A DNA stretch of 57,004 nt from Candidatus Aenigmatarchaeota archaeon. Its GTDB lineage: Archaea; Aenigmatarchaeota; Aenigmatarchaeia; QMZP01. The notes under the pieces are model-generated. The model had not been told where the DNA came from. It did not search any database and saw only the letters and a program-made list of their open reading frames with translations. Below are positions 4,078-13,978 of the stretch, piece by piece. The stretch's first letter is position 1. The number at the start of each line of letters is the position of its first letter. Position numbers and translations under genes: made by a program. The DNA is taken from the NCBI GenBank assembly GCA_015520105.1, contig WAQT01000010.1, forward strand, positions 1-57,004, read 5' to 3'.

Positions 4078-5052
4078 ATGAGGATAAGCTTCAGGCGCGG
4101 ATACACTGTTTATTCAACACCGGGGAACGTGACCTATGTCGCGCTCCATTCAGGTCCTGCTCTCGAGACCGTGACATCAAGGGATGAGAACAGCGAGACC
4201 GTTGCAAGCCTGTGCTGGCTCAAGACCGGTGGAAAGCTTGTGGTTTCGGGGCTTTCGAGGAAGATGTCCTTCGGTATCGACTTCAACAGGGGAATCCCTC
4301 CGAAAAGGGATGCCCTGAAACTCTTTGAGGATTTCATGAAGGATGAGAACAGGGAGAGGCTTTTCGAGTTCAGGAAGAAGTATGCGTGGTCTGCAGCAAG
4401 CGAGGATGACTACAAAAGAAGGCTGGGAATATACAGGAGCTTCTGGGAAGAGGTGAAGAAAGGGGACTTCGTGGTTCTTGTGCACAGGTGCTACACGAGG
4501 ATGAAGAACGTTCCGATGCTCATGGACTTTACAAGCTTTGACGGAAAGGGAATAGACAAAGGGATTCTTGAGGAGGCAGTGAAGGAGGTGAACAGAAAGA
4601 ACGAAAAGTTCTTCAAGAAAATCGAAAAGGAGTACAAAGCGGTCACTCTTATAGAACAGGAAAGGGTGGCAAGGACAATAGAGAGGGTGTACGGAAAGTT
4701 CGTTCTCGGGAAGAGAAACTCCAGCGACCATGCATACAATATCCATGCAGACATGGAGGTTATCAGGAAGCTCTGCCCGAAGGATGTTTTTGAGAAGCTC
4801 TCGGAGAACTTCAGTCCGAGAAACTTCCTCTATGCCTGCAAGAAGGCCCTTGAGAACGCGGACACACCACGGGTTACTGTTGAGCATGTTTTCAAGGGCC
4901 TGAGGTCTATAGGACCGAAGAAGCAGCTTCTCTCAAAGAGAAGGAAGGTTATAAATGTGGAATCCACGGCGTTTCTGAATTTCTGGTATCCTCACAAGGC
5001 CGCGGAGATGATAACAGACGTGGTGGAGAGGATAAGGAATTCAACAACATGA
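4078..5052 (+). CDS. Hypothetical protein
   Basis: 324 aa ORF with coding-like composition. I do not recognise a family. Confidence 0.5.
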   Translation: MRISFRRGYTVYSTPGNVTYVALHSGPALETVTSRDENSETVASLCWLKTGGKLVVSGLSRKMSFGIDFNRGIPPKRDALKLFEDFMKDENRERLFEFRKKYAWSAASEDDYKRRLGIYRSFWEEVKKGDFVVLVHRCYTRMKNVPMLMDFTSFDGKGIDKGILEEAVKEVNRKNEKFFKKIEKEYKAVTLIEQERVARTIERVYGKFVLGKRNSSDHAYNIHADMEVIRKLCPKDVFEKLSENFSPRNFLYACKKALENADTPRVTVEHVFKGLRSIGPKKQLLSKRRKVINVESTAFLNFWYPHKAAEMITDVVERIRNSTT

Positions 5053-5088
5053 CTTTTGAGCCGGGGTCTCCCAGACCTCACAGAAGAG

Positions 5089-5097
5089 TTTTAAATA
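5089..5097 (+). promoter_or_regulatory. Putative TATA box for the tRNA-Arg/tRNA-Pro unit
   Basis: TTTTAAATA centred about 27 nt upstream of the tRNA 5' end at 5120. The other tRNA genes here show the same spacing. Confidence 0.45.
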
Positions 5098-5119
5098 AGT
5101 ACGCATCAAAGTTATACGT

Positions 5120-5423
5120 GCCCCCGTAGCTCAGCTGGATAGAGCACTGGCCTTCTATCCCATATCTCAGGATAGAAGATTCGAGGCCTTCCGGCCGGTG
5201 AGAGGAAAGCCAGGGGTCGTGGGTTCAAAACACAAGAAGGGGAACACATTTCCCCTTCTTAGTGTCGTATCATCCCCTTTAGTACAGGATAACAAGGCAA
5301 GGGTTAACCGATAGTGCAAATGGAGAGGGAACCAAAGTTCCTACTCTTGTATCGTCTATCATGTCACAGGATAACAGGCAACACCATTAACTGGGGATAT
5401 AGAGGGGAATCCCTCCGGGGGCA
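5120..5423 (+). tRNA. tRNA-Arg(UCU) with two introns (about 5158..5207 at 37/38; about 5230..5408 in the T-loop)
   Basis: Acceptor GCCCCCG/CGGGGGC+A. D-arm GCTC-AGCTGGATA-GAGC. Anticodon stem CTGGC/GCCAG with loop CT-TCT-A. T-arm GTGGG-TTCAAA[intron]AT-CCCTC, which implies one U-U mismatch at 50:64. Confidence 0.7.
5250..5333. repeat. Conserved T-loop-intron module (copy in tRNA-Arg)
   Basis: The core 5268..5333 (TATCATCCCCTTTAGTACAGGATAACAAGGCAAGGGTTAACCGATAGTGCAAATGGAGAGGGAACC) matches 26858..26924, differing by one substitution and one 1-nt indel. Confidence 0.85.
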
Positions 5424-5426
5424 CAT

Positions 5427-5707
5427 GGGACCGTGGTGTAGTGGCATCATTGGAGCATGGGGCAGAACCCTTTTACGGGAGGCTGCCGCCTTCCTCAAAA
5501 GCGTTCACGGAAAATGTAAAAGGGTTTTACGGAGCGCTTCAGACCTGGGTTCGATAGAACCCTTTTGGACAGGCAAGCGTCCAAAAGCGTTCACGGAAAG
5601 ACAGCTTCCGCGTAACAACGGGAGCTGACGCTTCCGAACCCTTTTGGACAGGCAAACATCAACGCTTTTGCGTGCCTCCAGAAGGAACGGAAATCCCAGC
5701 GGTCCCA
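5427..5707 (+). tRNA. tRNA-Pro(GGG) with two introns (5463..5534 at 37/38; about 5555..5692 in the T-loop)
   Basis: Acceptor GGGACCG/CGGTCCC+A. D-arm GTGT-AGTGGCA-TCAT. Anticodon stem GGAGC/GCTTC with loop AT-GGG-G. T-arm CTGGG-TTCGA[intron]AT-CCCAG. It starts 3 nt after tRNA-Arg. Confidence 0.7.
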
Positions 5708-7336
5708 TTATATCTTTTCAAGAATTTTCGCGACCCTTTCCCTGCCGGCCACGGTTATGAGGGAGGCCAGCCTTGGGCCTGAGGGCTTTCCCAGAAGAGC
5801 GAGGTATGCGGCCTCGAAGAACCTCTGCGGCCTGATGTTTCTCTTATTGGATATCTCGAAGAAGAGATTGTAAAGCTCCTTCTCGTTCCTGTCCTTCTCC
5901 ACGAGCTTTCCGGCAAGGTCTTTCAGGCATTCCATCTGCTCTGGGGAAAGTTTCTTTACTATTCCCGGGTCAGGGTTGTCTTTTATGCATATCCTGTACT
6001 GTTCCGGGGCGTACAGCCGCGCCCAGTTTCCTGCGAGTACGAGACGCCTCTCCACGCTTTCCCTGTCCTGCTTTGAGAGTTCTCCCTTTATGTGGCCAGT
6101 CCTCTTCAGTATGCCAACAGCCGATTCCAAGAGAGTGTCTCCGGGAACTATCTGGGATATCATTGCAGAAAACGTGTAGGGAATCCTGAGAGGAGGTTTC
6201 TTCGGTATTGTCCTGCTGGACATCTCGTACATCCTTTTCATGTTCCTCCTGTCCTTCTCGTTCCTCTCCTCCTCGAGGCCAAAAAACACCCTCTCAACCC
6301 TCTCGAACTCGTCAACGAGCAGGTGTACGTTCCTGAGGTCGAGGTCTCTCTGCTTTCCCGGTTTCTTCGTGTAGAAGTAGAGGAAAACCTCAGGCTCTAT
6401 TATTTTGAGAATGTCCTGAGTGATGTAGACGTTGCCCTGCGAGGCGCTCATCTTCTCGCCGTTCACGAGGAAGAACTCGTAGACATAGGGAACCGGCGGT
6501 TCTATCTCAAAGACCCTTCTCGCTATCTCCTGTCCGCTTTGCCATGAGCCTGCGTAGTGGTCCTTCCCGAAGGGCTCGAAGTTGGTTTCGAATATCTTCC
6601 ACTGGGCAGGCCACTCGAACCTCCACTGAAGCTTTCCCTGCCTGAAGGAGACCTCTCCTTTCCATCCGCAGCCCTCGCTTCTCTTCTTCTTTATCGCCTT
6701 TCCCCCGCACACGAAACTCACTGTTTTGCTTTCCAGATTGAAGCCGGAGACATTCGTCAGGACACCGCAGTTCGGGCATATCGCGTCGAAGGGTATGTAA
6801 TCCTTTCCCTTGGTCTTCTGGTACTTGCTTATAATCTCTCCTGCTGTCTCCGCCTTCCTGAACACCGTCTCTATGTGGGGGTCAAACGCTCCCTTCCTGT
6901 AAAGCTCGTCGTTGGAGAATCTCTCCGGCTTTATCCCGAGTTCGTGGAGGCCTGACACCCAGAGGTTGTCGAAGTGATGGGCGTAGCTCCTGCAGCAGCC
7001 GAACGGGTCGGGTATGTTGCAGAGGGGGTGGCCCGAGTATTTCCTCAGTTCCGGAAACTTTTCCGAGGGGAACCATTTTCCGTCAAGGTCAGCAAGCCTC
7101 GCGGGTATGTCCTTCAGTGGGTCCCTGTCGTCGCTGGTGTTCACGAACCTCGCCTTCGCTCCCTTCTCTGTGACAGCCTTATAGACAAAATAGGCCCTCA
7201 CAGGGTCGTTCAGGTTTCCTATGTGCTTCCCTCCGGAAGGGGTCTGGCCGCTTCTTATGGATACGATTTTCTTCTCCTTCCTTGCCCTTCTTATTACGGC
7301 GTCAGCGAGCTGGTCTGCCCAGAACAGGGATTCCAT
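5708..7336 (-). CDS. lysK: Lysyl-tRNA synthetase, class I
   Basis: 542 aa. It has the HIGN signature (GGKHIGNL), KMSASQG (KMSKS-like) and the archaeal class I LysRS layout. Confidence 0.85.
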   Translation of the reverse strand: MESLFWADQLADAVIRRARKEKKIVSIRSGQTPSGGKHIGNLNDPVRAYFVYKAVTEKGAKARFVNTSDDRDPLKDIPARLADLDGKWFPSEKFPELRKYSGHPLCNIPDPFGCCRSYAHHFDNLWVSGLHELGIKPERFSNDELYRKGAFDPHIETVFRKAETAGEIISKYQKTKGKDYIPFDAICPNCGVLTNVSGFNLESKTVSFVCGGKAIKKKRSEGCGWKGEVSFRQGKLQWRFEWPAQWKIFETNFEPFGKDHYAGSWQSGQEIARRVFEIEPPVPYVYEFFLVNGEKMSASQGNVYITQDILKIIEPEVFLYFYTKKPGKQRDLDLRNVHLLVDEFERVERVFFGLEEERNEKDRRNMKRMYEMSSRTIPKKPPLRIPYTFSAMISQIVPGDTLLESAVGILKRTGHIKGELSKQDRESVERRLVLAGNWARLYAPEQYRICIKDNPDPGIVKKLSPEQMECLKDLAGKLVEKDRNEKELYNLFFEISNKRNIRPQRFFEAAYLALLGKPSGPRLASLITVAGRERVAKILEKI

Positions 7337-12339: not shown

Positions 12340-12673
12340 AAGAGGCGGATTCGCGAGTTTCCGCTTCCATGTTGCGGAAGCATCCGTTACGTTTACCTGC
12401 ACGTTTTCCGTACACGCTTGTTTCCGTCAGGAAACTCCCTGCCGGCACCTTCTCCTGTTCCCAACAGAAGGTGCATCAAGAGGGAGCTATCGCTTCCATC
12501 CTGCGACAGCGTCTGTTGCGTTTACTTTGCGTATTTTCCGTACACGCTTGTTTCCGTCAGGAAACTCCCTGCCGTCAGGCAGAGGATTGCGGAAGTGTAA
12601 ACTCCCGTAAAAGGGTGTGCGGTAGCGGTGTTTCCGTGAACGCTTTAGCGCGCTTGCCTGCGCTAAAGGGTTC
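12340..12673. repeat. Intergenic repeat island 2 (internal 40-nt duplication plus modules shared with tRNA introns)
   Basis: 12404..12443 is identical to 12534..12573 (40 nt). 12446..12510 matches 8968..9033. 12631..12673 is an inverted copy of the tRNA-Pro intron unit at 5557..5599. Confidence 0.85.
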
Positions 12674-13978
12674 TTACCAGCACACGCCTTCAAAACCATC
12701 GACTTTCTTGGGGTCCAGCGCCCTCCTGCCCTCTATTATCACACTTCCCCTCATCGCGGAGAAATCATCGTCCGTGAGGTCCCTGAACTCCCTCCATTCG
12801 GTCACGACAAGGCAGGCATCCGCTCCCTTCAGGGCCTCTTTCGCGCTTTCTGCGTAGCCTATCTTCGGGAACGCTTTCCGGAAGTTGAACATTGCCTTCG
12901 GGTCGTAGGCGACCACGCCGGCTCCCTGCCGGATAAGTTCGCTCACTATGCGCAGCGCAGGGGATTCCCTGACGTCGTCTGTCTCGGGCTTGAACGCGAG
13001 TCCGAGGACAGCGATTCTCTTTCCCTTGAGGGAACCGATTCTTTTCTTAAGGAGGTCTATCATCCTGTAGGGCTGCCTTGAGTTCACGTTTATCACCTCC
13101 TTCAGAAGGGAGGCGTTGTAGCCGAGCTTCTCTGCCTTGCTCACGAGGGCGAGGACGTCCTTGGGGAAGCATGAGCCTCCAAACCCTATTCCGGCCCTGA
13201 GGAAGTGGGGAGATATCCTGCTGTCCAGACCGACGCCCTTCATAACTTCATAGGCGTCTATCCCGAGCTTCTTGCAGATGTTCCCTATCTCATTCGCATA
13301 GGTTATTTTCATTGCAAGGAATGAGTTTGAGGCGTACTTTATCATCTCCGCCACCTTTAGGGAAGTTCTCAACACAGGGGCCGCAAATCCCCTGTAGAGA
13401 AAGGCGAGCGTCTCTCCGGAACGCGGGTCAAGCTCTCCTATCACTATCCTGTCCGGGTTGAGGAAATCCTCGAGCGCGCTTCCCTCCCTGAGGAACTCTG
13501 GATTCATGCACACGCCGAAACCGGGACCCGCCTTCTTTCCTGAACCCTCCTCGAGGTTCGGAATCACCACCCTCTCAGTGGTTTCTGGCGGGACAGTGGA
13601 CTTGACCGCAACCACATGGTAATGCTCCTTCAGCCTCAGGGCCTTTCCTATTGCCTTTGAGGAATCCTCTATATACCTTAAATCAGTATCTCCGTTCCTC
13701 CTTGACGGCGTCGGGACGCATATGAAGGTTATCTCCGACTCCGAGACAGCGTAATCGAGATTCGTGGTCGCCTCTATATTTCCCTCTCTTCTCAGTTCCT
13801 TGAGCATTTCCCTCAGTCCAGGCTCGTATATCGGGCTCTCTCCGGAGTTTATCCTTTCCACCTTTTCCTTGTCTATGTCCATGAGTATGGTCTTGAATCC
13901 CTTCTTTGAGAAGCCGACTGCTGTGGTTAACCCGACATATCCTGCGCCTATCAGCGATATCCTTACCTGCTTCCTCAT
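12674..13978 (-). CDS. ugd: UDP-glucose 6-dehydrogenase
   Basis: 434 aa with N-terminal GAGYVGL Rossmann motif, catalytic GFGGSCFPKD, and a C-terminal UDP-binding domain. Confidence 0.8.
   Translation of the reverse strand: MRKQVRISLIGAGYVGLTTAVGFSKKGFKTILMDIDKEKVERINSGESPIYEPGLREMLKELRREGNIEATTNLDYAVSESEITFICVPTPSRRNGDTDLRYIEDSSKAIGKALRLKEHYHVVAVKSTVPPETTERVVIPNLEEGSGKKAGPGFGVCMNPEFLREGSALEDFLNPDRIVIGELDPRSGETLAFLYRGFAAPVLRTSLKVAEMIKYASNSFLAMKITYANEIGNICKKLGIDAYEVMKGVGLDSRISPHFLRAGIGFGGSCFPKDVLALVSKAEKLGYNASLLKEVINVNSRQPYRMIDLLKKRIGSLKGKRIAVLGLAFKPETDDVRESPALRIVSELIRQGAGVVAYDPKAMFNFRKAFPKIGYAESAKEALKGADACLVVTEWREFRDLTDDDFSAMRGSVIIEGRRALDPKKVDGFEGVCW

Follow-up and report, generated by a model that had tools for sequence, protein, structure and literature searches.

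Adjacent tRNA-Arg(UCU) and tRNA-Pro(GGG) genes of an Aenigmatarchaeota archaeon, each with a predicted anticodon-loop intron and a long T-loop intron composed of repeated modules

Introduction

The closest described counterpart of the system reported here is Candidatus Micrarchaeum acidiphilum ARMAN-2 (PMC3239211, PMC3488258), in which 56% of tRNA genes are disrupted, with several introns per gene, and in which introns at position 59/60 are found in tRNA-Cys (hBH type) and in tRNA-Pro GGG (at 53/54 and 59/60) (PMC3239211). Below, we describe a comparable arrangement at positions 5120-5707 of a 57,004-nucleotide (nt) stretch of DNA from a Candidatus Aenigmatarchaeota archaeon (assembly GCA_015520105.1, contig WAQT01000010.1, positions 1 to 57,004 of the forward strand; hereafter the window). 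This segment very probably holds two functional, co-transcribed tRNA genes, tRNA-Arg(UCU) and tRNA-Pro(GGG), each interrupted by two endonuclease-type introns, one at the canonical site 37/38 and one at 59/60 in the T-loop. The organism shares the three-unit endonuclease type of ARMAN-2. It differs in phylum, in having introns of much greater length (up to 389 nt) that are composed of shared repeat modules, and in the filling of the 59/60 site in ~70% of detectable tRNA genes; the ARMAN-2 papers (PMC3239211, PMC3488258) describe no intron sequence families.

Thermoproteales likewise have up to three introns per tRNA gene, non-canonical positions that include the T-loop, and relaxed bulge-helix-bulge (BHB) motifs, and their 'transposed' paralogous introns, which show sequence kinship across tRNA genes, are taken as gained by copying (Sugahara et al. 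2008 and Fujishima et al. 2010, cited by PMC3239211 and PMC4090602). Unlike the organism described here, they use an (alpha-beta)2 endonuclease and carry short introns, with medians of 12-25 nt (PMC4090602). The present genome also differs in having one dominant site and introns that appear to have grown by modular accretion and tandem duplication. The euryarchaeal tRNA-Trp intron with a box C/D RNA is also long and structured with a conserved interior (cited by PMC4090602), whereas the introns described below have no C/D boxes or Rfam match, occupy 59/60 besides 37/38, and contain multi-copy modules. In Asgard archaea, many tRNA introns were missed by standard software, and repeated gains and a concentration of insertions in the T arm, with BHB-compatible boundaries, are described (bioRxiv 10.64898/2026.10.13.758758). 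Those archaea belong to another superphylum with another endonuclease type, and the available part of that preprint does not report repeat-module introns of such length.

Non-canonical and multiple tRNA introns, 59/60 introns, relaxed splice motifs, the epsilon2 endonuclease and paralogous intron families are thus already known (PMC3239211, PMC4090602). Our literature search found no report for this phylum, of dominance by one site (~70%), of lengths beyond the 11-129 nt that archaeal tRNA introns span overall (PMC4090602), of modular duplicating introns, or of portability between T-loops through pairing with the invariant UUCR.

Each gene is interrupted at 37/38 and at 59/60

ARAGORN recognizes zero tRNAs in the unspliced window, and the best that the Rfam tRNA model offers is a partial match below threshold (5124-5194, 22 bits). 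Once 5158-5207 and 5229/5230-5408/5409 are removed, ARAGORN calls a 74-nt tRNA-Arg(tct), and once 5463-5534 and 5555/5556-5692/5693 are removed, it calls a 71-nt tRNA-Pro(ggg). Two excisions per gene, as a sequence-only reading of this DNA had proposed together with the ARAGORN check itself, are therefore what restores accepted cloverleaves. The CCA end is encoded in neither gene.

All parts of the two genes lie on the forward strand. The tRNA-Arg gene consists of exon 1 (positions 1-37, 5120-5157), a 50-nt intron at 37/38 (5158-5207), exon 2 (positions 38-59, 5208-5229, with the T-stem 5' strand GTGGG and T-loop TTCAAA), a 180-nt intron at 59/60 (5230-5409) and exon 3 (positions 60-73, 5410-5423, composed of T60, CCCTC, CGGGGGC and A73). 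The first intron is placed by its helix with bases 32-35 and by a homologous intron in orthologues. The second comprises two tandem units of a repeat that we call U-type (5230-5320 and 5321-5403), followed by the tail GGGGAA. After an intergenic spacer of 3 nt, CAT (5424-5426), the tRNA-Pro gene follows with exon 1 (positions 1-37, 5427-5462), a 72-nt intron at 37/38 (5463-5534), exon 2 (positions 38-59, 5535-5555), a 138-nt intron at 59/60 (5556-5693) and exon 3 (positions 60-73, 5694-5707). The first exons of both genes were assigned by ARAGORN on the spliced sequence and by orthologues. The first Pro intron contains one copy of a second repeat, the B module, at 5465-5513; the second contains a B module (5557-5599), a hairpin (5602-5627), a degenerate B module from 5636 and the tail CGGAAA.

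The 3-nt spacing (5423/5427) agrees with the sequence-only reading. That reading had left the T-loop site at either 58/59 or 59/60 and given intron lengths of about 179 and 138 nt; the bulge-helix rule described below selects 59/60 over 58/59, under which the shorter length stands and the longer becomes 180 nt.

The tRNA-Pro D stem is weak (5437-5449: G10-U25, U11-A24, G12-C23, U13.U22), which recalls ARMAN-2 tRNA-Pro species whose D arm has a single Watson-Crick pair.

Predicted splice junctions

Junctions were placed with a geometry consisting of an outer helix, a 3-nt bulge, a 4-bp helix (H) and another bulge of 3 nt; cleavage was placed behind the second base of a bulge. At the Arg 37/38 site, loop bases 32-35 (CUUC) pair 4/4 with GAGG (5202-5205), the bulges are UA|U and AA|A, and the anticodon stem provides a 5-bp outer helix. 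At the Pro 59/60 site, the UUCG of T-loop positions 54-57 (5550-5553) pairs 4/4 with CGGA (5688-5691), the 3-nt bulges are A58 U59|A and AA|U60, and a hairpin begins at the second intron base; the T stem, H and the 3' bulge are all recovered in the unconstrained RNAfold minimum-energy structure. At the Pro 37/38 site, the anticodon stem (5 bp) and an inner helix of 13 bp (5464-5476 with 5516-5528) stand in 3-4-3 spacing, and sliding this junction by one base in either direction leaves the product identical. BHB-like structures can thus be drawn at both T-loop junctions, as the sequence-only reading had asked to see, with H at 4/4 in Pro and 3/4 in Arg.

All four junctions belong to a relaxed class, in which the canonical inner helix formed by the intron ends is absent or replaced by a local hairpin. 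Relaxed motifs of this type are cleaved by epsilon2 and (alpha-beta)2 enzymes (PMC3239211). A generic hBHBh' scan of 5100-5730 was dropped, as it returned 65 matches at relaxed settings and missed real sites at strict ones; register statistics across the genome were used instead.

The 59/60 site across the genome

The window belongs to a metagenome-assembled genome (MAG) of 0.80 Mb in 66 contigs, 88% complete, which we refer to as G000. Candidates for further 59/60 introns had to show U8, A14, TTCRA, an acceptor stem of 7 bp and a T stem with its complementary 3' strand, and their spliced forms were then passed to ARAGORN; the intron tail was ignored in the search. This approach identified 59/60 introns of 37-389 nt in 22 tRNA genes, to which a tRNA-Thr gene on contig C27 is added, and at least four further such genes are truncated by contig ends. 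The Arg-Pro pair is a local rule in this genome, not an exception. Assignment of anticodons by brute force is ambiguous for about half of the 22, and only clear identities are claimed here. The longest intron found in the genome is the 389-nt T-loop intron of a tRNA-Pro(CGG) gene (G000:C22:24407-24920), which also carries a 54-nt intron at 37/38; the introns of this gene contain a B-like unit 92% identical to that of the Pro(GGG) 37/38 intron.

A YGRR tail followed by a 3-nt bulge lies opposite T-loop positions 54-57 in all 22 introns. Pairing of positions 54-57 with intron bases q-5 to q-2 is complete (4/4) in 15 genes and 3/4 in seven, and the mean of 3.68 pairs in the 59/60 register compares with 1.0-2.6 in six shifted registers. 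C56 stands opposite G in 21/22, and the pair 57:q-5 covaries (G-C in 8, A-U in 6 and G-U in 2), a pattern of helix covariation that places the T-loop junctions under selection. The two shortest introns, of 37 and 44 nt, form perfect hBHBh' motifs.

Run unaided on G000, ARAGORN reports ten tRNA genes, only one of which belongs to the 22, with its long intron misplaced in the anticodon loop. Many contigs (C12, C20, C24, C26, C27, C30, C32, C45, C56 and C58) end in intron modules, which makes the tRNA-intron repeats a leading reason for breaks in the assembly and for the low tRNA counts that standard finders give.

Repeat modules within the introns

The 588-nt query spanning both genes matches ~20 other contigs of G000 at 76-98% identity. 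As in paralogous tRNA intron families, introns of different tRNA genes thereby share sequence beyond the splice motif. This modular construction was overlooked by the sequence-only reading, whose account of the locus is otherwise supported.

Each U unit comprises a hairpin (AAGARGGG...CCCYUCUU) and a downstream GUAUC...GGAUAAC...GUUAAC...GAUAG element. Using nhmmer, 11 U-type units were found in G000, every one within a tRNA T-loop intron, while 40 relatives yielded nothing beyond two short matches. The U units thus look like a young, species-level burst. RNAalifold on the 11 units supports the first hairpin alone, with little covariation, because the copies are young. The palindrome GGTTAACC / GTTAAC occurs at 5303-5310 and 5386-5391, and GGTTAAC is found in ~14/22 T-loop introns, toward the 3' part; the palindrome is at times doubled, its copies forming a hairpin.

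B modules follow the pattern GAACCCUUU-[variable stem-loop]-AAAGCGUUCRCGGAAA, and G000 has 13 strict B units; the module recurs both in a 37/38 intron and in 59/60 introns. In a set of 15 copies drawn from 11 genomes, pairing in the B stem reaches 94.8%, compared with 84.6% in shuffled sets (0/500 reach the observed value) and at most 47% in slid controls, and double-sided changes number 20 where 6.9 are expected. The junction of T-loop and B module (GGTTCRAN{1,2}GAACCCTT) gives ~85 matches in 24/371 genomes of the phylum, as opposed to 2 matches for the reversed control; a single genome holds as many as 16, and the sister species has none. In relatives, the complete B-type T-loop intron is 69-75 nt long and forms a textbook hBHBh' motif, in which a 5' GAACC pairs with GGUUC located right before YGRR. 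Its hosts are different tRNAs, because their acceptor stems differ. The internal GCGUUCRCGGAAA of this intron is a duplicate of its 3' splice motif, and in one case is literally identical to the true 3' end. One B module with the module that follows it lies between ordinary genes at ~12590-12674 of the window, on the reverse strand, outside recognized tRNA genes and without exons.

Orthologous genes and the history of the two sites

Orthologous genes were examined in seven related genomes, including that of a sister species in the same genus (G001); in all of these the exons are kept and the introns differ. Between G000 and G001, the Arg anticodon stem is altered on both strands (CTGGC/GCCAG to CCAGC/GCTGG), as is the Pro acceptor pair 4-69 (A-T to G-C). 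These changes are compensatory across the introns and place the genes under selection.

The Arg 37/38 intron is homologous in all seven orthologues, and its tail is always GARG + AN, complementary to the CUUC of positions 32-35. Intronless tRNA-Arg genes that come from other organisms in the source metagenome part from the window precisely after 5157. The Arg T-loop intron forms a length series of 0 (G023, G020), 10 (G001), 101 (G004, B-type), 119 (G016), 180 (G000, U-type) and ~270 nt (G024). The Pro(GGG) gene is intronless in G004, has a 12-nt T-loop intron only in G001, and has introns of 72 and 138 nt in G000; the Pro 37/38 intron is missing from both the G001 and G004 orthologues.

The two G001 mini-introns, GCUCUGAAAA and GCUCUGCGGAAA, consist of the loop, the H strand and two bulge bases only, and their lengths of 10 and 12 nt are at or under the 11-nt minimum of reviews. 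They share a GCUCUG core that in G001 is confined to these two sites, and the Pro tail CGGAAA is identical in G000 and G001. Both genes are found on contig C15 of G001 (L014:149-274 and L014:1765-1847), as tRNA-Arg and tRNA-Pro with T-loop mini-introns of 10 and 12 nt (GCTCTGAAAA, GCTCTGCGGAAA). The Arg-Pro distance is 1.5 kb in G001 versus 3 nt in G000.

Splicing enzymes

The genome encodes a single splicing endonuclease, EndA (420 amino acids, contig C42, L013:1198-2460, reverse strand), of the three-unit epsilon2 type. EndA aligns end to end with the ARMAN-2 epsilon2 structure 4FZ2 (E 8e-98), of which it is a full-length homologue, and keeps the counterparts of the catalytic triad (Y236, H251, K282) and of loop lysine K161. 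The ligase RtcB is also encoded (537 bits). Homologues of EndA at 57-73% identity occur in 35 MAGs, whose titles name Candidatus Aenigmatarchaeota in 21 cases, no phylum in 12 and Nanoarchaeota in 2. In the literature found, the epsilon2 type is known only from Micrarchaeum and Mancarchaeum (PMC5829648, PMC6379350, PMC12397907), and the present case carries it over to Aenigmatarchaeota. The sequence-only reading had named Thermoproteales and ARMAN-type lineages as archaea with non-canonical intron positions; the lineage here is a different one, and the ARMAN connection nonetheless holds for the enzyme.

Transcription signals and the neighboring gene

A TATA-like box, TTTAAATA, can be read on the forward strand at 5090-5097, ~27 nt 5' of the tRNA-Arg start, a spacing that fits archaeal promoters, and is likely the promoter of the Arg-Pro dicistron. 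Because there is no space for a second promoter between the genes, a dicistronic precursor would be the natural reading. The TATA-like GATATAGA at 5397-5404, within the Arg T-loop intron and ~25 nt 5' of tRNA-Pro, probably resembles a promoter by chance, since it belongs to a module tail (GGGGATATRRAGG) that is repeated in other introns.

The discriminator A73 of tRNA-Pro (5707) adjoins the stop codon of the convergent lysK gene (5708-7336, reverse strand), as the sequence-only reading had noted. The lysK product is a class-I lysyl-tRNA synthetase of 542 amino acids (Pfam tRNA-synt_1f, E 3.5e-95), and lysK neighbors tRNA-Pro in the sister species as well. Three open reading frames that overlap the introns (5508-5708 and 5170-5319 on the reverse strand, 5314-5625 on the forward strand) have no Pfam match.

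Assembly support and alternative explanations

Several observations weigh against two functional genes spliced as drawn. At the Arg 59/60 site, H reaches only 3/4 (U-G, U-G, C-G, A.G), two of its pairs being G-U, and the GGGG tail is paired elsewhere in the minimum-energy fold. At the Pro 37/38 site, the central helix has 2/4 standard pairs (U-G, G-C), and purines face purines on their flanks. No inner helix is formed by the two ends of the long introns, which makes these introns relaxed, hBH-like substrates, and they hold TTTT runs that could hinder archaeal transcription. The mature tRNA-Arg has a U50:U64 mismatch in its T stem. With regard to how the modules might have spread, no RVT_1 or other reverse transcriptase was found in the MAG, at its 88% completeness, which disfavors RNA-mediated spread. 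Excision at all four junctions is, moreover, something we infer from gene structure, motifs and enzymes. Finally, the locus is assembled across repeats; public unitigs from hydrothermal-vent metagenomes, which as DNA data show tiling and repeats rather than expression, tile it but leave 5282-5303 uncovered among the unitigs listed.

One alternative would make one or both genes tRNA pseudogenes killed by repeat insertion, or the long introns chimeric assembly artefacts, and the mismatch, the two weak junctions, the uncovered segment and the much greater depth of the repeat cores relative to their flanks in the source metagenome all point that way. We consider this very improbable. The same architecture recurs in at least 22 tRNA genes for many amino acids, which cannot all be dead, and BLAST of the MAG yields no second Arg-UCU or Pro-GGG exon set. 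Single-copy-depth unitigs (17-32x) bridge exons and intron ends, joining exon 2 to the 15 nt that open the Arg T-loop intron and the last 35 intron nt to exon 3 and tRNA-Pro, and the helix covariation indicates junctions under selection. The U50:U64 mismatch recurs in the G004 Arg orthologue (GTGGG/CCCTC), and is thus a lineage feature, not an assembly fault; an origin by co-conversion with the T arm of the C27 tRNA-Thr(UGU) gene, or by chimeric assembly, is rejected on account of the same orthologue. A unitig joint that skips 82 nt (5283 to 5366) is no allele; it corresponds to the paralogous C27 tRNA-Thr intron at 85% likeness.

Two further explanations accept the genes as real and concern the modules. 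The modules may be DNA repeats resembling miniature inverted-repeat transposable elements (MITEs) or repetitive extragenic palindromes (REPs), which land anywhere and survive where they can be removed, so that their link to tRNA genes reflects survivorship and not targeting. The exon-less array between genes, several B copies outside catalogued tRNAs, composite introns that resemble nested or tandem insertions, and the lack of a reverse transcriptase in the MAG are consistent with this proposal, yet we regard it as unlikely. In 6/13 strict B copies the module begins 0-1 nt past T-loop base 59, in the same phase; together with the recurrence of the T-loop and B junction across the phylum, this indicates that whole introns with their boundaries were copied, as opposed to inserted at random. 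In addition, most of the 'outside' B copies lie at contig ends, where a tRNA may have been cut off, and no terminal inverted repeats, target duplications or transposase came to light, although they were not sought exhaustively. A different possibility is that the modules are functional small RNAs (stable, perhaps circular introns) or protein-binding sites kept by selection, with the tRNA genes serving as an expression platform. The B flanks GAACCCUUU and AAAGCGUUCRCGGAAA are indeed nearly invariant across several families and enclose a covarying stem, and the frequency of GGTTAAC in T-loop introns could be read in the same way. However, these flanks are accounted for as strands of splice motifs, and intron content at one tRNA site turns over wholly between genera; in the sister species the introns measure 10-12 nt. 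U-type units are limited to G000 among the 40 relatives searched. Rfam, searched at E <=10 on 5050-5760, yields no credible family for modules or introns; Intron_gpI has no match there, and the T-loop introns, at 138-180 nt, are shorter than group I introns, which usually exceed 200 nt. Box C/D and H/ACA boxes are absent, as the snoRNA matches are sub-threshold and at chance level, lying on the opposite strand or spanning exons, and no B module was found in viral contigs. Selection for such a function therefore appears improbable to us, more so than survivorship of DNA repeats.

A model for splicing and intron growth

The reading we favor remains that of two working, co-transcribed tRNA genes with endonuclease-type introns; how they would be processed, and how the modules spread, we infer as follows. 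The precursor would be cut at every intron by the epsilon2-type endonuclease and its exons sealed by RtcB. The T-loop site would act as a relaxed BHB motif whose outer helix is the T stem. The 3' cut would lie in a 3-nt bulge (A, R | Y60), and a 4-bp helix would form between T-loop positions 54-57 (UUCR) and the YGRR tail at the intron 3' end; the 5' cut would separate base 59 from the intron, within three nucleotides that precede a stable hairpin of the intron. Because this helix uses the nearly invariant T-loop, the same intron would suit any tRNA, and such portability likely explains both the filling of 59/60 in most tRNA genes and the shared intron sequence. The interior would tolerate inserts because the enzyme needs only the two ends of the intron.

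The introns of G000 would accordingly be swollen versions of introns that measure 10-12 nt in the sister species, enlarged as hairpin modules, of U type in Arg and of B type in Pro, were inserted and duplicated in tandem. In the simplest model, a minimal hBH intron would persist at 59/60 while its loop takes in hairpin modules. Recombination or insertion at the DNA level is a more likely route of spread than reinsertion at the RNA level, because the MAG has no reverse transcriptase and the array at ~12590-12674 has no exons.

A bolder version of this model is possible, and we offer it tentatively. The B-type T-loop intron may be a portable, self-contained splice cassette that is actively colonizing tRNA genes, which would make it an endonuclease-type intron that is truly mobile and obeys a defined target rule. 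Its 3' tail (YGRR + AN) would pair with U54 U55 C56 R57 of the host and its 5' GAACC with the internal GGUUC, which would make any tRNA T-loop a competent host without adaptation. Colonization would come in bursts, which would not be the same even in two species of a single genus, and the cassette would grow as its own 3' splice motif is duplicated in tandem, with removal in one step or in successive steps.

Significance

The architecture that the sequence-only reading had called unusual is so against the literature, since intron lengths of 138-389 nt exceed the reviewed range of 11-129 nt (PMC4090602), but not within its own genome, where no fewer than 22 tRNA genes are interrupted at 59/60. 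It explains why such MAGs yield only about ten tRNA genes to standard finders, a shortfall that affects genome-quality scores relying on tRNA counts. The case also bears on how archaeal tRNA introns arise and why they lie at the sites they do. It offers a natural length series at one orthologous site, from 0 through 10, 101, 119 and 180 to ~270 nt, and a simple structural rule, pairing with the invariant UUCR, that would explain the T-loop as a universal landing site for introns.

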